A DNA stretch of 64,000 nt from Escherichia coli (GCF_003334315.1 NZ_QOWR01000009.1), one strand, 5' to 3'. Numbered from the stretch's first letter, positions 4,671-19,395 are shown. Notes: a model not told the origin generated them from the sequence alone. Program-made: numbers and translations.

Positions 4671-4770
4671 TAAATTCCTAAAGTTGTTTTCTTGCGATTT
4701 TGTCTCTCTCTAACCCGCATAAATACTGGTAGCATCTGCATTCAACTGGATAAAATTACAGGGATGCAGA

Positions 4771-7700
4771 ATGAGACACTTTATCTATCAGGACGAAAAA
4801 TCACATAAATTCTGGGCGGTGGAGCAACAGGGAAACGAGTTGCATATCAGTTGGGGAAAAGTTGGCACCAAAGGGCAAAGTCAGATAAAAAGTTTTTCAG
4901 ATGCTGCGGCAGCGGAAAAAGCGGAACTTAAGCTGATTGCGGAGAAGGTGAAGAAGGGGTATGTGGAGCAAGCGAAGGATAATTCTTTGCAACCTTCCCA
5001 AACGGTAACGGGCTCTCTCAAGGTAGCGGACTTATCCACCATTATTCAGGAACAACCCTCTTTCGTAGCAGAAACCCGTGCGCCTGACAAAAATACAGAT
5101 GCTGTTTTACCGTGGCTGGCGAAAGATATTGCTGTCGTTTTTCCGCCCGAAGTTGTACACACCACGTTAAGTCATCGCCGCTTTCCCGGAGTTCCTGTTC
5201 AGCAAGCAGACAAATTGACCCAATTACGTCGCTTAGCCTGTAGTGTGTCGCAACGGGATAATAAAACAGCCACATTTGACTTCAGCGCCTGTTCTTTAGA
5301 ATGGCAAAACACCGTCGCCCAGGCGATCAGTCAGATCGACGGCCTGAAAACAACACAGTTACCATCACCAGTAATGGCTGTACTCACGGCACTTGAAATG
5401 AAATGCACAAGATATAAAGTGCGTGAGGATGTTATGGATCAGATCGTCCAGGAAGGCGGTCTGGAATATGCTACTGATGTAATAATACACCTTCAACAGA
5501 TTGATATTGAATGGGATTATGCGAATAATGTCATTATTATTCTGCCGTCTGGCATTGCACCTAGCTACTTGGAGCAATATTCCAGATTTGAATTACGCCT
5601 ACGTAAACATTTATCACTGACGGAAGAGTCTCTCTGGCAAAAATGTGCACAAAAACTTATTGCCGCAATTCCACATATTCCAGAATGGCGGCAACCATTA
5701 ATTGCTTTGTTATTACCCGAAAAACCAGAAATTGCACATGAAATTGCCCAGCGTCTACTGGGGCAAAAAAAATTACCCTCGCTTGAGTGGTTAAAAATAG
5801 TGGCGACTGATGAGCACATTCTTGCCTCATTAGAAAAATATCACGAACCATATGCCATTTTTGATGATTACTATTGTGGTGCGATATGGTCAGCCACCGT
5901 ATTACAGGAGCAAGGTGTTGCAGCCCTGCCCCGATTTGCTCCCTATGCCGCAAGTGACTACTGCGCCGATGTGTTGCGTCATATCAATCATCCGTTCGCA
6001 TTGACACTGCTTATACGTGTAGCCGGGCAAACTAAACGCTGTCACGATCGGATGACGAAAGCCATTGCTGCGTTCCCACATGCAGCAATGGCGGCACTGA
6101 CGGAACTTCTTGGGCAAAAAGAAGAGAACAGTTGGCGCATTATGCTAATGACAATGCTTATCTCACAACCAGCACTGGCAGAACAGGTCATTCCCTGGCT
6201 CTCGACACCCGCAGTTGCCGTACTGAAATCATGCCAGCAACAACTGACACAGCCCTCAAACCATGCCAGCGCCGATCTACTGCCAGCCGTAGTAGTCTCC
6301 CCTCCCTGGCTTTCGAAAAAGAAAAAATCGCCGATTCCGGTGCTGGATTTAGCGCCATTAGGCATTGAGCCAATCTGTTATCTGACAGAAGAAATCAGTA
6401 ATCAACTTTTGGCGAAATATATCTGGTATTCAAAACACATCACGGTTAGCCATGAAGAAAGTACTACCAACCTGTTGGCAAGGATGGGTTTTCAACGACG
6501 GATCGCTGGTACATATATTAAAGCTCCCGAAGCGGTAGTTGAGGCATGGCTAAATGAAGATTATTCAACCTTACTAAGTGAATTTAAGGTGTTTCATTCA
6601 CCTACCGGGCATTATTGGCAGTTGGGGATTTTGACAACATTGCCGCTGGAGAAAGCAGTAAAAGCATGGAATGCCCTTACCCTATCTCCACATACCGATA
6701 CCGAATACTCCATGTTACATTTTGGACTCAAAGGGTTACCTGGGTTAGTAAACTCACTTGCACGCTATCCACAAGAAGCCTTGCCCATCACGAATTACTT
6801 CGCAGCGAGTGAGCTGGCTCCTGCCGTCGCCCGTGCCTTCAACAAACTGAAAACGCTACGCGAAAACGCCCGTAGCTGGCTGTTGAAATACCCGGAACAT
6901 GCCCTTACCGGCCTGCTGCCTGCGGCGCTCGGCAAAGCCGGTGAAGCACAGGATAACGCCCGCGCTGCCTTGCGTATGCTTACCGAAAACGGTCATCAGC
7001 CATTACTGCAAGAAATCGCCCGACGTTATAACCAGCCGGAAGTAACCGATGCGGTGAACGCTCTGCTTGCGCTCGATCCCTTAGATAATCACCCGACAAA
7101 AATCCCCACTCTTCCGGCCTTTTATCAGCCATCGCTCTGGACGCGCCCGGTATTAAAAGCAAATGCCCAATCACTGCCAGATAGCGCCCTCCTCCACCTC
7201 GGTGAAATGCTCCGCTTCCCTCAGGAAGAGGCTCTGTATCCGGGATTATTGCAGGTGAAAGACGTCTGTTCCGCCGACTCACTGGCGGGATTTGCCTGGG
7301 ATCTGTTTACCGCCTGGCAGACCGCTGGCGCGCCGTCGAAAGAGAGTTGGGCGTTCACTGCGTTAGGCGTTCTCGGTAACGATGACACCGCCCGCAAACT
7401 GACGCCATTAATACGCGCCTGGCCTGGTGAATCCCAGCATAAACGCGCCACCGTTGGGTTGGATATTCTCGCTGCTATCGGTAGTGATATCGCCCTTATG
7501 CAGCTTAACGGCATCGCCCAGAAACTGAAATTCAAAGCATTACAGGAGCGGGCAAAAGAAAAAATTGCCGACATTGCCGAGAGCCGCGAACTCACGGTGG
7601 CGGAGCTTGAAGATCGGTTAGCACCGGATCTCGGTCTGGATGATAACGGTTCGCTGCTGCTGGATTTTGGCCCACGGCAGTTCACCGTCAGCTTTGATGA

Positions 7701-8565
7701 AACCTTAAAACCGTTTGTGCGTGATGTTTCCGGCAGCCGCCTGAAGGACCTGCCCAAACCGAACAAAAGCGATGATGAAACGCGGGCGAACGATGCGGTT
7801 AACCGCTACAAATTGCTGAAAAAAGATGCGCGTACCATCGCCGCCCAGCAGGTAGCAAGGCTGGAATCCGCCATGTGCCTGCGCCGCCGCTGGTCGCTGG
7901 AAAACTTCCAGCTCTTCCTGGTTGAGCATCCGCTGGTTCGTCACTTAACCCGCCGTCTGATTTGGGGCGTTTATAGCGCCGAAAACCAGCTACTGGCTTG
8001 CTTTCGCGTAGCAGAAGATAACAGCTCCAGCACCGCTGACGATGATCTTTTCACCCTGCCGGAAGGCGATATCTCTATCGGCACTCCTCACGTTCTGGAA
8101 ATATCACCAACGGATGCTGCCGCCTTTGGTCAGCTTTTTGCCGACTACGAACTGCTACCACCGTTCCGCCAGCTCGACCGTAACAGCTACGCCCTGACAG
8201 AAGCCGAGCGCAATGCCAGTGAACTGACCCGCTGGGCAGGCAGAAAATGCCCGAGTGGTCGGGTCATGGGGCTGGCGAATAAAGGCTGGATAAAGGGCGA
8301 ACCACAGGATGGAGGCTGGATCGGATGGATGATCAAACCTTTGGGTCGCTGGTCGTTAATCATGGAAATCGATGAAGGCTTTGCGGTAGGCATGTCGCCA
8401 GCCGAACTCAGCGCTGAGCAGCTCTTAAGCAAGCTGTGGCTATGGGAAGGCAAAGCAGAAAGATATGGCTGGGGGAGTAATTCAACACAGGAAGCGCAGT
8501 TCTCCGTAATCGATGCCATCACCGCCAGCGAGCTAATTAACGATATTGAAGCCCTGTTTGAATAA
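4771..8565 (+). CDS. yehH: Large MolR-like protein with N-terminal WGR domain (1264 aa), intact
   Basis: Single uninterrupted ORF; N-terminus MRHFIYQDEKSHKFWAVEQQGNELHISWGKVGTKGQ shows the W-G-K/R signature of WGR domains; remainder paralogous to downstream YehI. Confidence 0.85.
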   Translation: MRHFIYQDEKSHKFWAVEQQGNELHISWGKVGTKGQSQIKSFSDAAAAEKAELKLIAEKVKKGYVEQAKDNSLQPSQTVTGSLKVADLSTIIQEQPSFVAETRAPDKNTDAVLPWLAKDIAVVFPPEVVHTTLSHRRFPGVPVQQADKLTQLRRLACSVSQRDNKTATFDFSACSLEWQNTVAQAISQIDGLKTTQLPSPVMAVLTALEMKCTRYKVREDVMDQIVQEGGLEYATDVIIHLQQIDIEWDYANNVIIILPSGIAPSYLEQYSRFELRLRKHLSLTEESLWQKCAQKLIAAIPHIPEWRQPLIALLLPEKPEIAHEIAQRLLGQKKLPSLEWLKIVATDEHILASLEKYHEPYAIFDDYYCGAIWSATVLQEQGVAALPRFAPYAASDYCADVLRHINHPFALTLLIRVAGQTKRCHDRMTKAIAAFPHAAMAALTELLGQKEENSWRIMLMTMLISQPALAEQVIPWLSTPAVAVLKSCQQQLTQPSNHASADLLPAVVVSPPWLSKKKKSPIPVLDLAPLGIEPICYLTEEISNQLLAKYIWYSKHITVSHEESTTNLLARMGFQRRIAGTYIKAPEAVVEAWLNEDYSTLLSEFKVFHSPTGHYWQLGILTTLPLEKAVKAWNALTLSPHTDTEYSMLHFGLKGLPGLVNSLARYPQEALPITNYFAASELAPAVARAFNKLKTLRENARSWLLKYPEHALTGLLPAALGKAGEAQDNARAALRMLTENGHQPLLQEIARRYNQPEVTDAVNALLALDPLDNHPTKIPTLPAFYQPSLWTRPVLKANAQSLPDSALLHLGEMLRFPQEEALYPGLLQVKDVCSADSLAGFAWDLFTAWQTAGAPSKESWAFTALGVLGNDDTARKLTPLIRAWPGESQHKRATVGLDILAAIGSDIALMQLNGIAQKLKFKALQERAKEKIADIAESRELTVAELEDRLAPDLGLDDNGSLLLDFGPRQFTVSFDETLKPFVRDVSGSRLKDLPKPNKSDDETRANDAVNRYKLLKKDARTIAAQQVARLESAMCLRRRWSLENFQLFLVEHPLVRHLTRRLIWGVYSAENQLLACFRVAEDNSSSTADDDLFTLPEGDISIGTPHVLEISPTDAAAFGQLFADYELLPPFRQLDRNSYALTEAERNASELTRWAGRKCPSGRVMGLANKGWIKGEPQDGGWIGWMIKPLGRWSLIMEIDEGFAVGMSPAELSAEQLLSKLWLWEGKAERYGWGSNSTQEAQFSVIDAITASELINDIEALFE

Positions 8566-8574
8566 GGAAAGAGC

Positions 8575-11500
8575 ATGGACAAGGAATTACCGTGGCTGGC
8601 GGATAACGCCCAACTGGAACTGAAATATAAAAAAGGCAAAACGCCGCTCAGTCATCGTCGCTGGCCGGGCGAACCAGTGTCCGTTATCACTGGAAGTCTC
8701 ATCCAGACATTGGGTGATGAATTGCTACAAAAAGCTGAGAAGAAAAAAAACATTGTCTGGCGTTATGAGAATTTTTCACTGGAGTGGCAGTCCGCCATCA
8801 CGCAGGCCATCAACTTGATCGGCGAACACAAACCCTCAATCCCGGACCGGACAATGGCGGCGCTAGCCTGTATCGCGCAAAATGACAGCCAACAGTTGCT
8901 CGACGAAATCGTCCAACAAGAGGGGCTGGAATATGCGACTGAGGTGGTGATTGCACGCCAGTTTATTGCGCGGTGTTATGAGAGTGATCCTCTGGTAGTG
9001 ACATTGCAGTATCAGGACGAGGATTATGGCTATGGTTATCGCTCAGAAACCTATAACGAATTCGATCTCCGACTGCGTAAGCATCTCTCTCTGGCAGAGG
9101 AAAGCTGCTGGCAGCGTTGCGCCGACAAACTCATTGCCGCACTACCAGGAATAACCAAAGTTCGCCGCCCTTTTATTGCGCTGATCCTCCCGGAAAAACC
9201 AGAAATAGCCAATGAGTTGGTAGGCCTTGAATGCCCGCGAACTCATTTTCATTCTAAGGAGTGGTTAAAAGTTGTTGCTAATGACCCCACAGCGGTGAGA
9301 AAACTCGAACACTACTGGAGCCAGGATATATTTAGCGATCGAGAAGCCAGCTACATGTCGCATGAAAACCACTTCGGCTACGCGGCCTGCGCCGCCCTTT
9401 TGCGCGAACAAGGACTGGCAGCCATTCCGCGCCTCGCGATGTATGCCCATAAAGAAGATTGCGGCAGTCTGCTGGTACAAATTAACCATCCGCAAGTCAT
9501 CCGCACCTTGCTACTGGTGGCTGATAAAAACAAACCCAGCCTGCAACGTGTAGCTAAATACCATAAAAACTTCCCCCATGCGACGCTCGCCGCACTGGCA
9601 GAACTGCTGGCGTTAACAGAACCACCAGCCCGCCCTGGTTATCCAATCATCGAAGACAAAAAGCTGCCTGCACAGCAAAAAGCACGCGATGAATACTGGC
9701 GTACGCTGTTACAAACGCTGATGGCATCGCAGCCACAACTGGCAGCAGAAGTGATGCCGTGGTTAAGTACTCAACCCCAGTCAGTGCTGAAGAGTTATTT
9801 ATCGGCACCGCCCAAACCGGTTATTGATGGCACCGATAACAGCAATCTGCCAGAAATCCTCGTTTCACCACCGTGGCGTAGTAAGAAAAAAATGACAGCT
9901 CCACGTCTTGATTTGGCACCGCTCGAATTAACTCCGCAAGTTTACTGGCAACCAGGCGAACAAGAGAGGCTTGCCGCCACTGAGCCTGCCCGTTATTTCA
10001 GCACGGAATCTCTTGCGCAACGCATGGAACAAAAAAGTGGACGAGTTGTATTACAGGAACTGGGTTTTGGGGATGATGTATGGCTGTTTCTGAATTATAT
10101 ACTCCCCGGAAAACTGGATGCTGCACGCAATTCACTCTTTGTTCAGTGGCATTACTACCAGGGGCGGGTTGAAGAGATCCTGAATGGCTGGAACTCCCCG
10201 GAAGCACAATTAGCAGAACAGGCGCTCCGCAGCGGTCACATAGAAGCGTTAATTAACATATGGGAAAATGACAACTACTCACATTATCGTCCGGAAAAGA
10301 GTGTCTGGAACCTGTATTTATTGGCACAGTTGCCGCGTGAGATGGCTTTGACCTTCTGGCTGCGTATCAATGAGAAAAAGCATCTGTTCGCGGGTGAGGA
10401 CTATTTTCTCAGTATCCTCGGATTGGATGCGCTACCAGGTCTGCTGTTGGCTTTTTCACATCGTCCAAAAGAAACATTTCCGTTAATTTTAAATTTTGGC
10501 GCAACAGAACTGGCGCTGCCTGTTGCCCACGTCTGGCGACGTTTCGCGGCGCAGCGTGATCTGGCTCGCCAGTGGATTTTACAATGGCCGGAACATACGG
10601 CTAGTGCACTTATCCCTCTTGTCTTTACCAAACCCAGCGATAATAGCGAAGCCGCATTACTTGCCCTGCGTTTACTGTACGAACAGGGACATGGCGAATT
10701 GCTACAAACCGTGGCAAACCGCTGGCAGCGTACAGATGTATGGTCTGCCCTGGAGCAGTTGCTTAAACAGGGTCCAATGGACATTTACCCGGCACGCATT
10801 CCAAAAGCCCCTGATTTCTGGCATCCGCAAATGTGGTCCAGGCCGCGCCTTATCACTAATAATCAAACTGTTACCAATGACGCTCTGGAAATTATCGGCG
10901 AAATGCTGCGCTTTACCCAGGGGGGACGTTTTTATAGCGGGCTGGAACAACTGAAAACGTTCTGCCAGCCACAAACGCTGACAGCTTTTGCCTGGGATCT
11001 CTTCACTGCGTGGCAACAAGCTGGTGCCCCCGCAAAAGACAACTGGGCATTTCTGGCGTTAAGTCTCTTTGGTGACGAAAGCACGGCACGGGATCTGACG
11101 ACACAGATCCTCGCCTGGCCACAAGAAGGCAAATCTGCCCGTGCTGTCAGCGGCCTGAACATCCTTACCCTGATGAATAATGATATGGCGCTGATACAGC
11201 TGCATCATATATCGCAACGGGCTAAATCCCGCCCCTTACGTGATAACGCGGCGGAATTTCTTCAGGTGGTCGCAGAAAATCGCGGGCTAAGCCAGGAAGA
11301 GCTAGCGGACAGATTAGTCCCAACCCTGGGCCTTGATGATCCGCAGGCGTTGAGTTTTGATTTTGGTCCCCGGCAGTTTACCGTTCGCTTCGATGAAAAT
11401 CTCAACCCGGTTATCTTTGATCAGCAAAACGTTCGCCAGAAAAGCGTTCCCCGTTTGCGCGCCGATGACGATCAACTGAAAGCGCCCGAGGCACTGGCCC

Positions 11501-12207
11501 GACTAAAAGGGCTAAAAAAAGATGCTACTCAGGTGAGCAAAAACCTGCTCCCGCGTCTTGAAACGGCCCTACGTACCACCCGACGCTGGTCGCTGGCAGA
11601 TTTTCATTCTCTGTTTGTTAATCATCCCTTTACCCGTCTGGTTACCCAGCGATTAATATGGGGGGTTTATCCGGCAAATGAACCGCGTTGTTTACTCAAA
11701 GCCTTTCGTGTGGCCGCAGAGGGGGAGTTCTGCAATGCGCAAGATGAGCCAATTGACCTGCCTGCGGACGCTCTGATTGGCATTGCCCACCCGTTAGAAA
11801 TGACAGCAGAAATGCGCAGTGAATTTGCACAGCTTTTTGCCGATTACGAAATTATGCCGCCTTTTCGCCAGTTGTCGCGCCGCACGGTGCTGCTCACACC
11901 TGACGAGTCAACCAGTAACAGCCTGACTCGCTGGGAAGGTAAATCCGCTACCGTTGGGCAACTTATGGGAATGCGATACAAAGGCTGGGAGTCAGGCTAT
12001 GAGGACGCATTTGTCTATAACCTGGGTGAGTACCGGCTGGTCCTTAAGTTTTCACCCGGTTTTAACCACTACAATGTTGATAGCAAAGCGCTAATGAGCT
12101 TCCGTTCTCTTCGAGTGTACCGTGACAATAAATCCGTCACTTTTGCCGAACTTGATGTGTTTGATTTGAGTGAGGCGTTAAGCGCACCTGACGTCATTTT
12201 CCATTAA
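8575..12207 (+). CDS. yehI: Large uncharacterised protein YehI (1210 aa), paralogue of YehH lacking the WGR N-terminus
   Basis: ORF 8575..12207, 1210 aa; extensive colinear similarity with YehH (e.g. DLRLRKHLSLAEES..., SPPWRSKKK, FAWDLFTAWQQAGAP, FDFGPRQFTV, FAQLFADYEIMPPFRQL). Confidence 0.85.
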   Translation: MDKELPWLADNAQLELKYKKGKTPLSHRRWPGEPVSVITGSLIQTLGDELLQKAEKKKNIVWRYENFSLEWQSAITQAINLIGEHKPSIPDRTMAALACIAQNDSQQLLDEIVQQEGLEYATEVVIARQFIARCYESDPLVVTLQYQDEDYGYGYRSETYNEFDLRLRKHLSLAEESCWQRCADKLIAALPGITKVRRPFIALILPEKPEIANELVGLECPRTHFHSKEWLKVVANDPTAVRKLEHYWSQDIFSDREASYMSHENHFGYAACAALLREQGLAAIPRLAMYAHKEDCGSLLVQINHPQVIRTLLLVADKNKPSLQRVAKYHKNFPHATLAALAELLALTEPPARPGYPIIEDKKLPAQQKARDEYWRTLLQTLMASQPQLAAEVMPWLSTQPQSVLKSYLSAPPKPVIDGTDNSNLPEILVSPPWRSKKKMTAPRLDLAPLELTPQVYWQPGEQERLAATEPARYFSTESLAQRMEQKSGRVVLQELGFGDDVWLFLNYILPGKLDAARNSLFVQWHYYQGRVEEILNGWNSPEAQLAEQALRSGHIEALINIWENDNYSHYRPEKSVWNLYLLAQLPREMALTFWLRINEKKHLFAGEDYFLSILGLDALPGLLLAFSHRPKETFPLILNFGATELALPVAHVWRRFAAQRDLARQWILQWPEHTASALIPLVFTKPSDNSEAALLALRLLYEQGHGELLQTVANRWQRTDVWSALEQLLKQGPMDIYPARIPKAPDFWHPQMWSRPRLITNNQTVTNDALEIIGEMLRFTQGGRFYSGLEQLKTFCQPQTLTAFAWDLFTAWQQAGAPAKDNWAFLALSLFGDESTARDLTTQILAWPQEGKSARAVSGLNILTLMNNDMALIQLHHISQRAKSRPLRDNAAEFLQVVAENRGLSQEELADRLVPTLGLDDPQALSFDFGPRQFTVRFDENLNPVIFDQQNVRQKSVPRLRADDDQLKAPEALARLKGLKKDATQVSKNLLPRLETALRTTRRWSLADFHSLFVNHPFTRLVTQRLIWGVYPANEPRCLLKAFRVAAEGEFCNAQDEPIDLPADALIGIAHPLEMTAEMRSEFAQLFADYEIMPPFRQLSRRTVLLTPDESTSNSLTRWEGKSATVGQLMGMRYKGWESGYEDAFVYNLGEYRLVLKFSPGFNHYNVDSKALMSFRSLRVYRDNKSVTFAELDVFDLSEALSAPDVIFH

Positions 12208-12267
12208 AACACAGCGGGCAGTGATGCAACTGCCCGTTATCAACACGACTTACCAGCGGGGAAAGCG

Positions 12268-12585
12268 ATGATCGTGCAAAAAGAGCTGGTTGCTATTTAC
12301 GATTATGAGGTCCCTGTACCTGAAGATCCGTTTTCCTTCAGACTTGAGATCCATAAATGCTCTGAATTATTTACAGGTTCCGTCTATCGACTGGAGCGAT
12401 TCCGGCTACGTCCAACATTTCATCAACGTGATCGAGAAGATGCTGACCCGCTAATAAATGATGCGTTGATTTATATAAGAGATGAGTGTATTGATGAGCG
12501 GAAATTACGAGGTGAATCACCTGAAACTGTAATAGCAATTTTTAATCGTGAACTACAGAATATATTCAACCAAGAAATAGAATAA
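12268..12585 (+). CDS. yehK: Small uncharacterised protein YehK (105 aa)
   Basis: ORF 12268..12585 preceded by RBS-like gggaaagcg; AT-richer than flanking genes. Confidence 0.65.
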   Translation: MIVQKELVAIYDYEVPVPEDPFSFRLEIHKCSELFTGSVYRLERFRLRPTFHQRDREDADPLINDALIYIRDECIDERKLRGESPETVIAIFNRELQNIFNQEIE

Positions 12586-12662
12586 TATACTCTAAATAAT
12601 TCAAATTGGTCCGATCCGGCGCACCGTCCCAATGGCCTGGATTATAAATCTCATTATCTTAA

Positions 12663-12691
12663 TTGCAACGGGGTCCAGCCGTGGTTATAAT
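12663..12691 (+). promoter_or_regulatory. Near-consensus sigma70-type promoter (TTGCAA - 17 bp - TATAAT)
   Basis: -35 ttgcaa 12663-12668, 17-bp spacer, perfect -10 tataat 12686-12691. Confidence 0.4.
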
Positions 12692-12756
12692 TCGTTCGTT
12701 GGAACACGATGTTGCACAGGCTGTGGTGTTAGGCCTGAAAATAGTAAATAAAAGAA

Positions 12757-12781
12757 CCTGCCTCACCAGCAGGTTTTTTTA
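12757..12781 (+). terminator. Intrinsic terminator in yehK-yehL intergenic region
   Basis: Stem cctgc / gcagg with loop ctcacca (12757-12773) followed by 8 T (12774-12781). Confidence 0.5.
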
Positions 12782-12891
12782 TTTACTGTGATCTGCTTTC
12801 CAGATATTTTTCGCTCAAACAACTAATGCGCCAAACATTTATTGCGCGTAAAATATCGTTTATTTCATTAATACATTTCAGGGATGAATAT

Positions 12892-13979
12892 ATGTCACCG
12901 CAGAATAATCATCTGCAGCGTCCGCCTGCTGCTGTGTTATACGCCGATGAACTGGCAAAATTAAAACAAAATGATAACGCACCTTGCCCGCCCGGTTGGC
13001 AGTTAAGTTTGCCTGCGGCCCGTGCTTTTATCCTTGGCGACGAAGCGCAAAATATCAGCCGTAAAGTGGTGATTAGCCCCTCCGCTGTCGAACGTATGTT
13101 AGTCACTCTTGCTACCGGCCGCGGTTTGATGTTGGTGGGGGAACCGGGTACCGCAAAATCTCTTCTTTCTGAATTACTGGCAACCGCTATTAGCGGCGAT
13201 GCCGGGTTAACCATCCAGGGCGGGGCATCTACCACCGAAGATCAAATCAAGTATGGCTGGAACTACGCCCTGCTTATCAATCATGGTCCGTCAACGGAAG
13301 CGCTGGTCCCTGCCCCGCTTTATCAGGGAATGCGCGACGGCAAAATCGTCCGTTTCGAAGAGATAACGCGTACACCGCTGGAAGTGCAGGACTGTCTGTT
13401 AGGTATGCTTTCTGACAGGGTGATGACGGTGCCGGAACTCACTGGTGAAGCCAGTCAGCTCTATGCGCGAGAAGGCTTTAATATTATTGCCACTGCCAAT
13501 ACCCGCGATCGCGGCGTCAATGAAATGAGTGCTGCGCTAAAGCGTCGCTTCGATTTTGAAACGGTTTTTCCGATTATGGATTTCGCCCAGGAGTTGGAAC
13601 TGGTCGCCAGTGCTTCGGCGCGTTTGCTGGCCCATAGCGGTATTCCGCATAAAGTGCCTGACGCGGTACTGGAATTACTGGTCCGCACCTTCCGCGATCT
13701 GCGTGCCAACGGCGAAAAGAAAACGTCAATGGATACACTGACAGCGATTATGTCCACCGCTGAAGCCGTGAACGTGCCCATGCTGTGGGCGTCCGCGCCT
13801 GGTTTTTAGCGAATCGCGCGGGGGAGCCTGCCGACCTGGTGGAATGTATTGCCGGAACCATCGTCAAAGATAACGAAGAAGATCGCGCGCGTCTGCGCCG
13901 TTACTTCGAACAGCGTGTCGCCACACATAAAGAAGCTCACTGGCAGGCTTATTATCAAGCCCGCCACCGCCTGCCGTGA
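12892..13979 (+). pseudogene. yehL: MoxR-type AAA+ ATPase YehL, disrupted by apparent 1-nt deletion (frame A ends at TAG 13807-13809; remainder continues in -1 frame to 13979)
   Basis: ORF 12826..13809 trimmed to MSPQNNH at 12892; Walker A LVGEPGTAKS (~13138-13161). The -1 frame is open from 13764 to TGA 13977-13979; joined length equals 362 codons, matching my recollection of K-12 YehL. T5 run at 13803-13807 is the likely indel site. Confidence 0.6.
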
Positions 13980-13989
13980 GGAAAGATGC

Positions 13990-16269
13990 ATGAGCGAGCC
14001 GTTAATTGTCGGCATCCGGCATCATAGTCCGGCCTGCGCCCGGCTGGTGAAATCGTTAATCGAAAGCCAGCGGCCACGATACGTGTTGATTGAAGGCCCG
14101 GCTGATTTTAATGACCGGGTAGACGAACTGTTTTTAGCCCACCAGCTTCCGGTAGCTATTTACAGTTATTGCCAGTATCAGGACGGTGCAGCCCCCGGGC
14201 GTGGTGCCTGGACGCCATTTGCTGAATTTTCGCCGGAGTGGCAGGCGCTACAAGCCGCACGTCGCATTCAGGCACAAACTTACTTCATCGATTTGCCTTG
14301 CTGGGCGCAGAGTGAAGAAGAGGACGATTCGCCTGATACGCAAGATGAAAGCCAGGCCTTACTGCTGCGTGCCACCCGCATGGATAACAGCGATACCCTG
14401 TGGGATCACTTGTTCGAAGATGAAAGCCAGCAAACTGCATTACCCTCTGCGCTGGCGCACTATTTTGCCCAACTGCGGGGCGACGCCTCCGGCGATGCGC
14501 TCAATCGTCAGCGCGAAGCCTTTATGGCCCGCTGGATTGGATGGGCGATGCAGCAAAATAATGGCGACGTGTTAGTTGTCTGCGGTGGCTGGCACGCTCC
14601 GGCACTGGCAAAGATGTGGCGCGAATGCCCTCAGAAAATTAACAAGCCAGAATTGCCCTCGCTGGCAGATGCCGTTACAGGTTGTTATCTCACACCCTAC
14701 AGTGAAAAGCGCCTTGATGTGCTGGCAGGATACCTTTCAGGAATGCCTGCCCCGGTATGGCAAAACTGGTGCTGGCAGTGGGGCTTGCAGAAGGCCGGTG
14801 AACAACTGCTAAAAACTATCCTTACCCGTTTGCGCCAGCACAAATTGCCCGCTTCTACCGCGGATATGGCTGCCGCTCATCTGCATGCGATGGCGCTGGC
14901 ACAGTTGCGCGGTCATACACTACCGTTACGCACTGACTGGCTGGATGCCATAGCAGGCTCGCTGATTAAAGAAGCCCTGAACGCGCCGTTGCCGTGGAGC
15001 TATCGCGGCGTTATTCATCCCGATACCGATCCGATTCTGCTAACGTTGATAGACACATTAGCGGGTGACGGATTCGGTAAACTTGCCCCTTCTACGCCAC
15101 AACCGCCTCTGCCAAAAGATGTCACCTGCGAACTGGAACGTACCGCAATCTCCCTTCCGGCGGAGCTTACCTTAAATCGCTTTACCCCCGATGGGCTGGC
15201 GCAAAGTCAGGTGTTACATCGGCTGGCAATACTGGAGATCCCTGGGATTGTACGCCAGCAGGGAAGTACACTGACACTTGCAGGCAACGGTGAAGAACGC
15301 TGGAAATTAACCCGCCCGCTTAGCCAGCATGCGGCATTGATTGAGGCCGCCTGTTTTGGTGCCACACTCTAGGAAGCCGCACGCAATAAATTAGAAGCCG
15401 ATATGCTGGACGCGGGCGGAATCGGCAGTATCACCACATGTCTTAGCCAGGAGGCGTTAGCGGGTCTGGCGTCCTTCAGTCAACAATTACTGGAGCAACT
15501 CACACTATTAATCGCCCAGGAAAATCAATTTGCCGAAATGGGCCAGGCGCTGGAAGTGCTTTATGCCTTATGGCGGCTGGATGAAATTAGCGGTATGCAA
15601 GGCGCGCAGATATTACAAACGACGTTATGCGCGACTATCGATCGCACGCTGTGGCTGTGTGAATCTAACGGCAGACCGGATGAAAAGGAGTTTCACGCTC
15701 ACCTGCATAGCTGGCAAGCGCTTTGCCATATTCTGCGCGATCTACATAGCGGCGTTAATTTACCCGGCGTTTCTCTTTCTGCGGCGGTAGCCTTACTGGA
15801 GCGACGCAGTCAGGCAATTCATGCCCCGGCGCTGGATCGCGGCGCGGCTCTTGGCGCACTAATGCGTCTGGAACATCCCAACGCCAGTGCCGAAGCGGCG
15901 CTGACGATGCTGGCGCAGTTATCCCCGGCACAATCTGGTGAGGCGCTGCACGGTTTGCTGGCGCTGGCCCGCCATCAACTGGCCTGTCAGCCGGCATTTA
16001 TCGCCGGTTTCAGCAGTCATTTAAATCAACTGAGTGAAGCCGATTTTATTAACGCCCTGCCCGATTTACGCGCGGCGATGGCCTGGCTACCACCACGAGA
16101 ACGCGGGACGCTGGCGCATCAGGTGCTTGAGCATTATCAACTGGCGCAACTTCCCGTTTCGGCGCTGCAAATGCCGTTGCATTGTCCACCACAGGCCATT
16201 GCACATCATCAACAACTCGAACAGCAGGCACTGGCATCGCTGCAAAACTGGGGAGTTTTCCATGTCTGA
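13990..16269 (+). pseudogene. yehM: Large uncharacterised protein YehM with in-frame amber codon (TAG 15370-15372); two ORF halves 13990..15372 and 15373..16269 in the same frame
   Basis: ORFs 13849..15372 and 15403..16269 are in the same reading frame separated only by TAG; read-through length 759 codons equals my recollection of K-12 YehM. Start at MSEPLIVGIRHHSP (13990). Confidence 0.6.
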
Positions 16270-17398
16270 ACTGAACGATCTTCTGACCACCCGTGAGCTA
16301 CAACGCTGGCGATTAATTCTTGGCGAAGCGGCAGAAACGACGCTTTGTGGGCTGGATGACAACGCCCGGCAGATAGACCACGCGCTGGAGTGGCTGTATG
16401 GGCGCGATCCTGAACGGCTCCAGCGTGGTGAACGTTCCGGTGGATTAGGTGGCTCAAATCTCACCACCCCTGAGTGGATCAACAGTATTCACACGCTGTT
16501 TCCGCAGCAGGTGATTGAGCGGCTGGAAAGCGATGCCGTGCTGCGCTACGGCATTGAAGATGTGGTGACGAATCTCGACGTGCTGGAACGTATGCAGCCT
16601 TCTGAAAGCCTGCTACGCGCTGTTTTGCACACCAAACATCTGATGAACCCCGAAGTACTGGCTGCCGCCCGCCGGATAGTGTGCCAGGTTGTTGAAGAAA
16701 TTATGGCTCGACTGGCAAAGGAAGTTCGTCAGGCTTTTTCTGGTGTCCGCGATCGCCGTCGCCGTTCATTTATTCCACTGGCGCGAAACTTTGATTTCAA
16801 AAGTACTCTGCGCGCCAACCTGCAACACTGGCACCCGCAACACGGCAAGTTGTATATCGAATCCCCCCGCTTTAACAGCCGCATTAAACGCCAAAGCGAA
16901 CAATGGCAACTGGTCTTACTGGTTGATCAAAGCGGATCGATGGTCGATTCGGTGATCCACTCTGCGGTGATGGCGGCCTGTTTGTGGCAGTTACCCGGCA
17001 TTCGTACCCATCTGGTGGCGTTTGACACAAGCGTCGTTGATCTCACGGCAGACGTTGCCGATCCGGTAGAGTTATTAATGAAAGTACAGTTGGGCGGCGG
17101 GACCAATATCGCCAGTGCCGTGGAGTATGGTCGGCAACTTATTGAACAACCAGCGAAAAGCGTCATTATCCTCGTGAGCGATTTTTACGAAGGGGGTTCA
17201 TCATCATTACTGACGCATCAGGTGAAAAAGTGTGTCCAGAGCGGCATCAAAGTGCTGGGACTGGCAGCGCTCGATAGCACCGCAACACCTTGCTATGACC
17301 GCGATACGGCCCAGGCGCTGGTTAATGTCGGCGCACAAATAGCCGCCATGACGCCGGGCGAGCTGGCATCATGGCTTGCGGAGAATCTTCAGTCATGA
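16262..17398 (+). CDS. yehP: von Willebrand factor A (vWA) domain protein YehP (378 aa)
   Basis: ORF trimmed to MSELNDLLTTRELQRW at 16262 (ATG 8 nt upstream of the yehM stop); MIDAS-like motif DQSGS (~16925-16939). Confidence 0.88.
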   Translation: MSELNDLLTTRELQRWRLILGEAAETTLCGLDDNARQIDHALEWLYGRDPERLQRGERSGGLGGSNLTTPEWINSIHTLFPQQVIERLESDAVLRYGIEDVVTNLDVLERMQPSESLLRAVLHTKHLMNPEVLAAARRIVCQVVEEIMARLAKEVRQAFSGVRDRRRRSFIPLARNFDFKSTLRANLQHWHPQHGKLYIESPRFNSRIKRQSEQWQLVLLVDQSGSMVDSVIHSAVMAACLWQLPGIRTHLVAFDTSVVDLTADVADPVELLMKVQLGGGTNIASAVEYGRQLIEQPAKSVIILVSDFYEGGSSSLLTHQVKKCVQSGIKVLGLAALDSTATPCYDRDTAQALVNVGAQIAAMTPGELASWLAENLQS

Positions 17399-19395
17399 AT
17401 TCACTACGTCCGGAATTATTAGAACTGACACCGCAGGCCCTGACGGCGTTAAGCAATGCCGGTTTTGTTAAGCGCAGTCTTAAGGAACTGGAAAATGGCA
17501 ACGTCCCGGAGATCAGCCATGAGAACGACGCTTTAATCGCCACCTTCAGTGACGGTGTCCGTACCCAGCTGGCGAACGGCCAGGCACTGAAAGAGGCTCA
17601 GTGCAGTTGCGGGGCCAACGGTATGTGCCGTCATCGCGTGATGCTGGTGTTAAGTTATCAACGACTTTGTGCCACCACTCAGTCTACGGAAAAAGAAGAA
17701 GAGTGGGATCCGGCAATCTGGCTGGAAGAACTGGCTACCCTTCCCGATGCTACCCGCAAACGCGCACAGGCGCTGGTCGCTAAAGGCATCACCATTGAGT
17801 TGTTCTGTGCGCCGGGTGAAATTCCCTCTGCCCGCTTACCGATGAGCGATGTGCGTTTTTATTCCCGCAGCAGTATTCGTTTCGCCCGTTGTGATTGTAT
17901 TGAAGGCACACTTTGCGAACATGTCGTACTGGCGGTACAGGCCTTCGTCGAGGCCAAAGCGCAGCAAGCAGAATTTAACCATTTAATCTGGCAGATGCGC
18001 AGCGAACACGTCACATCATCTGACGATCCGTTTGCCAGCGAAGAAGGCAACGCGTGTCGTCAATATGTTCAGCAATTAAGCCAGACATTATGGCTTGGCG
18101 GCATCAGCCAGCCGCTCATCCATTACGAGGCAGCATTCAACCGCGCATTGCAGGCGGCAGAGACCTGCAACTGGCGCTGGGTGAGTGAATCGCTACGGCA
18201 ACTGCGCGCCAGCGTTGATGCCTTCCACGCCCGCGCCAGCCACTATAATGCCGGAGAATGCTTACATCAGCTTGCGGCATTAAACAGTCGATTAAATTGC
18301 GCACAAGAGATGGCCCGGCGCGACAGTATTGGTGAAGTTCCTCCTGTGCCGTGGCGCACGGTCGTTGGCTCTGGCATTGCCGGAGAAGCAAAGCTTGATC
18401 ATCTGCGGCTGGTGTCTTTAGGTATGCGTTGCTGGCAGGATATTGAGCATTATGGTTTACGCATCTGGTTTACCGATCCCGACACCGGCAGTATTTTGCA
18501 CCTTTCGCGCAGTTGGCCGCGAAGTGAACAGGAAAACTCACCGGCAGCTACGCGTCGGCTGTTTAGTTTTCAGGCTGGCGCACTGGCGGGCGGGCAAATT
18601 GTTTCACAAGCAGCAAAACGCAGTGCCGATGGCGAGCTGCTGTTAGCTACCCGCAACCGCTTAAGCAGCGTTGTGCCGCTGTCGCCTGATGCCTGGCAAA
18701 TGTTGAGCGCGCCGTTACGCCAGCCGGGCATTGTGGCTTTGCGGGAATATTTACGCCAGCGTCCCCCCGCCTGCATACGGCCTCTTAATCAGGTCGATAA
18801 CTTATTTATTCTGCCGGTCGCTGAGTGTATTTCGCTCGGTTGGGACAGCAGCCGCCAGACGCTGGATGCGCAGGTCATTAGCGGCGAAGGGGAAGATAAT
18901 GTGCTGACGTTATCATTACCAGCCTCAGCCAGCGCACCTTATGCCGTTGAACGCATGGCGGTGCTTTTGCAACAAACAGACGACCCCGTGTGTCTGGTTT
19001 CTGGCTTTGTCAGTTTTGTTGAAGGGCAATTGACACTGGAACCACGGGTGATGATGACAAAAACCCGTGCCTGGGCGCTGGACGCAGAAACTACGCCTGT
19101 GGCACCGCTACCTTCTGCCAGCGTTTTGCCTGTGCCGTCTACTGCTCATCAGTTGCTGATACGCTGCCAGGCGTTACTTATTCAACTGCTCCATAACGGC
19201 TGGCGCTATCAGGAACAGAGTGCTATTGGTCAGGCAGAGTTGCTGGCGAATGACCTCACCGCGGTGGGTTTTTATCGGCTGGCACATGTGTTGGGACAAT
19301 TTCGTAATACAGAAAGCGAGGCACGGGTAGAAGCAATGAATAACGGTGTTTTGCTTTGCGAACAATTATTCCCCATGCTTCAGCAACAAGGATGA
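17395..19395 (+). CDS. yehQ: SWIM zinc-finger protein YehQ
   Basis: ORF trimmed to MNSLRPELLEL at 17395 (ATGA overlap with yehP stop); two CxCx5CxH motifs: CSCGANGMCRH and CDCIEGTLCEH. Confidence 0.85.
   Translation: MNSLRPELLELTPQALTALSNAGFVKRSLKELENGNVPEISHENDALIATFSDGVRTQLANGQALKEAQCSCGANGMCRHRVMLVLSYQRLCATTQSTEKEEEWDPAIWLEELATLPDATRKRAQALVAKGITIELFCAPGEIPSARLPMSDVRFYSRSSIRFARCDCIEGTLCEHVVLAVQAFVEAKAQQAEFNHLIWQMRSEHVTSSDDPFASEEGNACRQYVQQLSQTLWLGGISQPLIHYEAAFNRALQAAETCNWRWVSESLRQLRASVDAFHARASHYNAGECLHQLAALNSRLNCAQEMARRDSIGEVPPVPWRTVVGSGIAGEAKLDHLRLVSLGMRCWQDIEHYGLRIWFTDPDTGSILHLSRSWPRSEQENSPAATRRLFSFQAGALAGGQIVSQAAKRSADGELLLATRNRLSSVVPLSPDAWQMLSAPLRQPGIVALREYLRQRPPACIRPLNQVDNLFILPVAECISLGWDSSRQTLDAQVISGEGEDNVLTLSLPASASAPYAVERMAVLLQQTDDPVCLVSGFVSFVEGQLTLEPRVMMTKTRAWALDAETTPVAPLPSASVLPVPSTAHQLLIRCQALLIQLLHNGWRYQEQSAIGQAELLANDLTAVGFYRLAHVLGQFRNTESEARVEAMNNGVLLCEQLFPMLQQQG

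Follow-up and report, generated by a model that had tools for sequence, protein, structure and literature searches.

We analyzed a 64,000-nucleotide (nt) stretch of Escherichia coli DNA (GCF_003334315.1, NZ_QOWR01000009.1), referred to below as the window and used for all coordinates, with a focus on four adjacent genes, yehL, yehM, yehP, and yehQ, which an initial annotation had singled out as the best candidate for an undescribed system. The window belongs to the E. coli chromosome and shows 99.9% identity to K-12 and phylogroup A strains across the yeh region. On the plus strand, we found metG, molR (also named yehH), yehI, yehK, an AT-rich spacer, yehL, yehM, yehP, yehQ, and yehR, in this order; downstream of yehR come the divergent yehS-btsR-btsS genes and then mlrA. 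Our analysis revealed that yehL to yehQ form the 3' part of a conserved unit of five protein families, which starts upstream with molR and yehI, and that two genes of this unit are broken in the window. The main features, with protein lengths in amino acids (aa), are as follows.

4746-4761, plus strand: LexA (SOS) box CTGGATAAAATTACAG, identified by a pattern search, 10 nt 5' of the molR ATG
4771-8565, plus strand: molR/yehH, encoding a protein of 1264 aa with WGR and DUF4132 domains; intact open reading frame (ORF) here
8575-12207, plus strand: yehI, encoding a DUF4132 paralogue of MolR without WGR, 1210 aa
12268-12585, plus strand: yehK, 105 aa, an Escherichia-specific insert between yehI and yehL, outside the conserved module
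12892-13979, plus strand: yehL, MoxR-type AAA+ ATPase of the YehL subfamily; pseudogene here
13990-16269, plus strand: yehM, DUF5682, 759 codons, with a predicted TraB/ChaN/EreA-like N-terminal domain and a predicted C-terminal helical-repeat scaffold; pseudogene here
16262-17398, plus strand: yehP, CoxE-type von Willebrand factor A (vWA) protein with a full metal ion-dependent adhesion site (MIDAS) motif; intact
17395-19395, plus strand: yehQ, SWIM zinc finger and predicted central tandem OB-like fold; intact here

The starts, ends, and tight packing initially proposed for yehL, yehM, yehP, and yehQ agree with RefSeq. A 10-nt gap (13980-13989) separates yehL from yehM, the yehM and yehP genes overlap by 8 nt (16262-16269), and yehP and yehQ overlap by ATGA (17395-17398), all three junctions being the same in RefSeq K-12 and in strain ECCHD184.

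Using YehM as a marker, we scanned one genome per GTDB species and obtained at least 555 YehM relatives among the 600 pattern matches listed. We took 80 loci, covering Enterobacterales, Burkholderiales, Xanthomonadales, many actinomycete genera, Myxococcota, and one acidobacterial metagenome-assembled genome, and established the composition of the module by an iterated local search with the E. coli proteins against the ORFs of those loci. The order (WGR-)DUF4132 (one to five genes), YehL, YehM, YehP, YehQ was found in 66 of the 69 loci with enough flanking sequence. Conservation of the neighborhood, for which Enterobacteriaceae had been proposed as a check, therefore extends to four phyla (Proteobacteria, Actinomycetota, Myxococcota, and Acidobacteriota), far beyond chance. 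A DUF4132 gene, present in one to five paralogues per locus, lies 5' of yehL in almost all loci, and at least one DUF4132 protein carries a WGR domain at its N terminus in 53 of 79 loci. Thus, the four genes are indeed conserved together as a unit, as the initial annotation had supposed, but an obligatory fifth partner had been missed: the unit reaches upstream of the yehL-yehQ interval and includes molR/yehH and yehI in the window. The same arrangement, with gaps or overlaps of a few bases, was seen in Serratia, Variovorax, and Klebsiella, on the basis of independent gene calls and precomputed Pfam assignments. The flanks of the 80 loci were also inspected for a client enzyme or a further gene conserved with the five families, and none recurs beyond genus-level synteny. 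Since no other family recurs, the module is self-contained, and its surroundings are unrelated from one genus to another.

The yehK gene was found only in E. coli and in an Escherichia whittamii locus (L007), the pattern DDKLMPQ occurring once among the loci. Klebsiella has no yehK, and its yehI and yehL genes are spaced by 78 nt. This comparison indicates that yehK and the AT-rich spacer are Escherichia-specific insertions.

Fusions between DUF5682 and VWA_CoxE domains occur in at least two unrelated contexts, each time between an AAA_5 gene and a YehQ-like gene, which argues that YehM and YehP act together physically. The identity between E. coli and actinomycete or myxobacterial proteins is 63-76% for YehL and 56-70% for YehP, compared with 37-48% for YehM, 26-37% for YehQ, and 30-46% for the DUF4132 proteins. 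This gradient points to a very constrained motor-adaptor pair, YehL-YehP, with faster-evolving partners. Some genomes contain tandem second modules. One of the loci (L091, 7001-17543, GCA_022841245.1) has a complete module in which DUF5682 and VWA are fused in one gene and, directly after it, a second AAA_5 and DUF5682 module. Genes for a 501-aa protein and a HEAT_2 protein come before this second module in place of DUF4132, suggesting that helical-repeat partners can be exchanged.

YehL matches Pfam AAA_5 (2.6e-34), with bpMoxR reaching only 0.0024, and bears the Walker A motif GEPGTAKS at residue 83, in keeping with the MoxR-type assignment proposed from the start. This motif, Walker B (RFEEITR), sensor 1 (ATANTRDRG), and the Arg finger (ALKRRF) are conserved in at least 98% of 85 sequences. 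Among solved structures, the AAA_5 modules of midasin come closest to YehL in sequence (E value of 7e-10), and an NCBIfam scan returned only sub-threshold matches to GvpN, MadB, and cobaltochelatase. YehP corresponds to VWA_CoxE (3.2e-72) and VWA_2 (5e-8). Its DQSGS sequence at residue 222, previously noted as MIDAS-like, is part of a full MIDAS motif (DQSGS...GGGT...SDFYEG) whose ligand residues are kept in at least 98% of 81 sequences. The expected pairing of MoxR with a vWA partner is borne out by a YehP-type gene located two genes downstream of yehL in 81 loci. In these loci, YehP has a length of 371 to 394 aa and no variable effector is fused to it, the sole fusions seen being with DUF5682. 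A search for transmembrane-like segments in the module proteins gave none, and we therefore consider these proteins cytosolic. At codon 287 of yehP, just past the GGGT MIDAS threonine motif, lies an exact copy (17120-17135) of the 16-nt cassette GTGGAGTATGGTCGGC, a predicted +1 ribosomal frameshift hotspot (FSscan, 2009) at which frameshifting was shown with a yehP-egfp fusion (PMC2790909).

VWA_CoxE being the best Pfam family of YehP, the module might be a maturation chaperone for cofactor or metal insertion, like CoxD-CoxE (Mo/Cu CO dehydrogenase), NorQ-NorD, and CbbQ-CbbO. The MoxR proteins studied so far mature specific complexes (PMC3893208), and YehL weakly matches GvpN and other MoxR relatives, but, in contrast to the cox, nor, and cbb clusters, the 80 loci have no conserved gene for a client enzyme beside the module, and the conserved partners bear DNA-type domains (WGR, SWIM, and OB) rather than cofactor-handling ones. 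The old name of molR, "molybdate metabolism regulator," comes from a molybdate-utilization phenotype, as cited in PMC7824862; yet the gene is a pseudogene in K-12, which is difficult to reconcile with an essential role in molybdate use, and molybdenum genes did not co-vary with WGR and DUF4132 genes in Deinococcus. Because no client enzyme is linked, we regard this explanation as highly improbable.

YehM, initially described as a protein of about 760 codons with an unknown fold, has 759 codons and belongs to DUF5682 (3e-98), and its fold can now be modeled. The predicted structure comprises an N-terminal alpha/beta core (approximately residues 1 to 240), similar to the TraB/ChaN/EreA/TIKI-like fold, and a C-terminal helical-repeat scaffold. 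Residues R10, H11, E35, H51, E83, D101, and H202 of the N-terminal domain are invariant in 62 sequences. The invariant His and Glu residues appear to resemble the motifs of the TraB/TIKI/erythromycin-esterase superfamily, and we infer that the domain may be a hydrolase. PDB sequence and profile searches with YehM and YehQ returned no relatives. The structure model of YehQ combines SWIM with a putative central tandem OB fold, like those of RPA, POT1, CST, HIN, and LEF-3; Foldseek scores for the OB region were weak, none at an E value of ≤1e-3, and no sequence similarity to RPA/POT1-type proteins was found. Both SWIM signatures reported initially are present in YehQ (CSCGANGMCRH at residue 70 and CDCIEGTLCEH at residue 166). 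The first is invariant (34/34), whereas the second keeps its zinc ligands in only about 17 of the 34 relatives and hence does not seem to be a feature of the family. The Pfam SWIM matches are weak (1.3e-3 and 0.21 in E. coli, with 3 of 34 members reaching ≤1e-3). Profile searches, which had been suggested as a check, thus recovered AAA_5, DUF5682, VWA_CoxE, and weak SWIM matches.

The WGR and DUF4132 domains of MolR and the DUF4132 domain of YehI were assigned from the precomputed Pfam annotation of orthologues (Serratia, Variovorax, and Klebsiella). Residues 2 to 70 of MolR match PDB entry 2ra8 (2.4e-17), and YehH (MolR), from its residue 110, shares 37% identity with YehI over 1184 aa (BLASTP). 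WGR has been described as a domain with which MolR-like proteins bind DNA (PMC7824862). Mitomycin C treatment of Deinococcus induces, via DdrO/IrrE, one DUF4132 and one WGR protein, which may or may not come from such a module.

The LexA box sits 5' of molR rather than of yehL, and molR figures in a published list of genes with a known SOS box (PMC6590174). The box is conserved at -25 in Klebsiella (locus L006). Neither a LexA nor an actinobacterial SOS box was found 5' of the first DUF4132 gene in Serratia, Variovorax, Xanthomonadales, or actinomycetes, and we dropped a universal control of the module by DNA damage, as Klebsiella was alone among the other lineages checked in having the box. 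Mutants in hns/stpA show raised expression of yehL and yehM, and H-NS binds to the intergenic region. The GC content steps from 42-46% over yehK and the spacer (12000-13000) to 53-56% over yehLMPQ (13000-19000), in line with distinct acquisition histories and with the H-NS binding reported for the intergenic region.

Tentatively, we favor the explanation that the module encodes a DNA-placed, ATP-driven machine that remodels or processes a protein client and is deployed under SOS in enterobacteria. We prefer such a remodeler because the MoxR-vWA pair has three dedicated partners, two with DNA-associated domains and one enzyme-like, and the module probably works on DNA-bound targets. We propose that the module encodes a self-contained machine of five families in the cytosol, with yehLMPQ as its 3' four-fifths and MolR and YehI as its (WGR-)DUF4132 proteins. 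YehL would assemble as a MoxR-type AAA+ ring, and YehP would be its vWA/MIDAS adaptor, gripping an acidic residue or a peptide of the client. YehM, bound to YehP, would provide a helical scaffold and a His/Glu hydrolase domain of the TraB/ChaN/TIKI-like type, by which the client may be processed. YehQ, with its SWIM and tandem OB folds, and the WGR domain of MolR would place the complex on DNA, be it single-stranded DNA (ssDNA), ends, or breaks. The DUF4132 proteins would be dedicated clients or sensors, most likely the client. In E. coli and Klebsiella, with the upstream gene under LexA control, the machine would be deployed upon DNA damage or in the presence of ssDNA for the ATP-driven remodeling or processing of a DNA-bound protein complex.

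In this proposal, the client, the biological role, DNA binding, and the assembly of a complex are inferred, whereas the module and its composition, the conserved catalytic motifs, the fold similarities, the LexA box, and the lesions are observed. Several points weigh against the proposal. ChaN binds haem and is not an enzyme, and the idea that YehM is a hydrolase comes from the conserved His/Glu residues and the superfamily motif. SWIM and OB folds can serve for contacts between proteins as well. SOS control is not a trait of the family as a whole, the LexA box being limited to Escherichia and Klebsiella. Finally, a dispensable system gained by horizontal transfer would explain frequent pseudogenes, H-NS silencing, and a GC content of 55-56% in yehLMPQ versus ~42% in the upstream spacer no less well than a repair function would. 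A wider reading, possible and in our opinion rather unlikely, is that the module is an undescribed, phylum-spanning DNA-sensing system, in which the MoxR-vWA motor, led to ssDNA or ends by SWIM-OB and WGR, would drive a TraB/TIKI-like hydrolase. If so, it could represent either a new immunity against invading DNA or a new SOS-linked clearance of protein-DNA complexes.

The initial annotation had likened the architecture to that of NTP (nucleoside triphosphate)-dependent conflict or defense modules, a comparison for which we found no direct support. In such a defense against phages or mobile elements, which we judge unlikely, WGR, SWIM, and OB would sense invading DNA ends or ssDNA, the DUF4132 paralogues being diversified sensors; the MoxR-vWA pair would then switch on a toxic or protective effect, for example, the YehM hydrolase. 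A MoxR-vWA core with extra components is characteristic of the conflict systems of Kaur et al. (2020), but their ternary-system paper does not cover the module and makes no mention of SWIM, WGR, YehL, or YehP, and PADLOC-DB 2.0 (E ≤ 0.01) gave 0 families for YehH, YehI, YehK, YehL, YehM, YehP, and YehQ. The variable number of DUF4132 copies (1 to 5) and the tandem second modules would suit a defense function, whereas the fixed architecture, the fixed sizes, constant for YehP, and the lack of swapped effector domains would not. YehL is highly similar from phylum to phylum in spite of a patchy distribution, suggesting horizontal transfer; H-NS silencing and a GC content above the surroundings also count in favor of defense, as does the recurrent independent inactivation, which is expected of a costly system. 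However, the module is near-core and syntenic in E. coli and Klebsiella and was found in only 39 of 72,556 plasmid records, and a tblastn search of 50,697 phage genomes yielded 1 weak match. The locus adjoins a zor-orz type I toxin-antitoxin locus in most E. coli strains, but no defense-type or mobile neighbors recur when the flanking families of the 80 loci are compared.

The sole phage match of YehM lies on MT835988.1 (11208-12770; 27% identity over residues 1 to 515), an unannotated 14-kb "Bacteriophage sp." contig from human feces, which may be a misclassified bacterial fragment or contain a distant viral DUF5682. Near-identical, very high-scoring matches to every protein of the locus, YehK included, were obtained in PHROGs (phrog_30700, 33984, 31592, 29006, 20839, 36602, and 36295). 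We discounted the phage origin that these matches would signal, because the tblastn search gave only one weak match; in addition, they extend over entire proteins at near-identity, and the YehM families break off at residue 509 and resume at 517, two halves that look like fragments of an interrupted E. coli yehM. Most likely, these PHROG families are E. coli chromosomal genes caught by over-extended prophage boundaries, since in O157:H7 86-24 (locus L089, 18668-23205) a lambdoid prophage with tail fiber, Lom, and gpJ genes splits mlrA, directly downstream of the yeh-bts cluster. In the window, unlike in O157:H7 86-24, mlrA is intact (23161-23892). Near-identical matches of chromosomal genes constitute a contamination caveat for PHROG-based annotation.

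The four genes had been presented initially without reference to any breakage, and two of them proved to be broken in the window. Alignment with K-12 and ECCHD184 showed that one G is missing from yehL (GTGGCC>GTGCC at 13775/6), 3' of the region encoding the AAA+ core; the shifted frame stops at 13809, and the true C terminus continues in another frame to 13979. In the same alignment, yehM has a CAG>TAG change at 15370-15372 (codon 461 of 759), which splits the gene into 13990-15372 and a remnant ending at 16269. We searched the complete RefSeq E. coli genomes for both lesions and none carries them, so they are either private to this genome or sequencing errors. With yehL frameshifted and yehM truncated by a stop, the copy in the window is genetically dead and cannot work as encoded. 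Conversely, molR and yehQ are intact in the window and are pseudogenes in K-12: in K-12 ER2796, molR contains a frameshift and an internal stop, and yehQ has a T, creating an internal stop, at the position equivalent to the G at 19237. This strain and K-12 therefore each miss different components of the module. Evaluation of seven E. coli alleles revealed at least one inactivating lesion in five of them, all different, as listed below.

K-12 ER2796: molR and yehQ pseudogenes
O157 86-24: molR pseudogene; internal stop in yehM
ST131 strain 131: frameshifts in yehP and yehK
B-JRPT-4119: frameshift in yehI
Window strain: frameshift in yehL; stop in yehM
CFSAN051542: no lesion; whole locus intact
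ECCHD184: no lesion in yehK-yehQ; yehI not flagged; molR outside the stretch examined

The E. coli locus has thus decayed repeatedly and independently, with the window copy as one case. This raises the question of whether the E. coli locus is a silenced, decaying relic without current function, the module being conserved elsewhere for a role peculiar to soil and multicellular bacteria. Besides the lesions above and the silencing by H-NS/StpA, yehL and yehM are deleted in Shigella sonnei lineages 2 and 3, the yeh locus was removed in the reduced-genome strain DGF-298, and the locus is disrupted in the successful ST131 clone, where a resistance transposon interrupts the DUF4132 region of sublineage L1a. 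Yet the locus is kept at ≥80% coverage in 5203 of 5426 complete E. coli genomes, and the full-length YehM clusters in public data (14,594 and 4,681 members) far outnumber the truncated ones, large as these are. The LexA box shared by E. coli and Klebsiella also argues against a relic, and some of the assembly frameshifts may be sequencing errors. We consider a functionless relic quite unlikely.

The short (0.3 kb), K-12-type spacer between yehK and yehL contains a strong match to the OrzO-P type I antitoxin small RNA (12705-12780, plus strand; Rfam score of 99.9 bits versus a gathering score of 60), preceded by a sigma-70-like promoter (12663-12691) and ending in a terminator hairpin (12755-12775). 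No zorO toxin ORF was found on the opposite strand in the window, for which reason the small RNA looks like an orphan antitoxin. In O157, the corresponding spacer (1.2 kb) harbors a full zor-orz locus.

The four-gene cluster itself is not new, as its genes have long been annotated. K-12 has two MoxR proteins, RavA and YehL, the latter of which gives its name to a MoxR subfamily (PMC3893208). In agreement with the initial annotation, the searchable literature yielded no assigned function; it also yielded no definition of the five families and no paper with DUF5682, and the only mentions of the yeh genes were in lists, an H-NS study, and a paper on frameshift prediction. What we add is the full five-family unit, fold-level assignments for two "unknown" proteins, one of which, YehM, answers the suggestion to predict its structure with a modeled TraB/ChaN-like domain and helical scaffold, and a link to DNA through WGR, SWIM-OB, and LexA. 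MoxR-vWA pairs are widespread and clients are known for few of them, the namesake of the YehL subfamily still being without a function. E. coli y-genes that are decades old hence become a testable system. Work in K-12 may have missed a phenotype, as K-12 is devoid of functional molR and yehQ and the operon is silenced by H-NS. An intact allele is required as the experimental starting point, the strain studied here lacking functional yehL and yehM.

The module can be compared to several known systems. RavA-ViaA, the other MoxR-vWA pair of E. coli, likewise consists of a MoxR AAA+ gene beside a gene for a vWA/MIDAS cofactor in one operon; however, it belongs to the RavA subfamily and is a two-gene unit linked to Nuo and LdcI, whereas the YehL subfamily has three further obligatory partner families. 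CoxD-CoxE, NorQ-NorD, and CbbQ-CbbO share the MoxR and vWA core, and YehP falls into the Pfam family VWA_CoxE, but these pairs adjoin the genes of their client enzymes, while the yeh module has no such neighbor and its extra partners look DNA binding. The vWA-MoxR-VMAP/iSTAND/beta-propeller/FtsH ternary systems (Kaur, Burroughs, Iyer, and Aravind, 2020) combine the MoxR-vWA core with further conserved components and, like the yeh module, occur preferentially in actinomycetes, myxobacteria, and other complex bacteria. Their third part is VMAP, iSTAND, a beta-propeller, or FtsH, in contrast to the DUF5682, SWIM-OB, and WGR-DUF4132 partners of the yeh module, and highly variable effectors are fused to their vWA proteins, which is not the case for YehP.

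Among the partners, YehM has no sequence match to the superfamily of TraB/PrgY/GumN, ChaN, EreA, TIKI, and HopBA1 (Pfam gives DUF5682 alone and the PDB profile search none), and its domain, unlike those of the superfamily, is joined to a predicted helical scaffold of 500 residues. The center of YehQ would resemble RPA70 DBD-A/B, POT1, CST, the HIN domain, and baculovirus LEF-3 by fold alone, with weak scores. The closest solved sequence relative of YehL is found in midasin/Rea1, where an AAA_5 ring coupled to a MIDAS domain strips factors from a nucleoprotein particle. In midasin, a eukaryotic protein, six AAA modules reside in one giant polypeptide, whereas the ATPase and the MIDAS protein of the yeh module are separate bacterial proteins.

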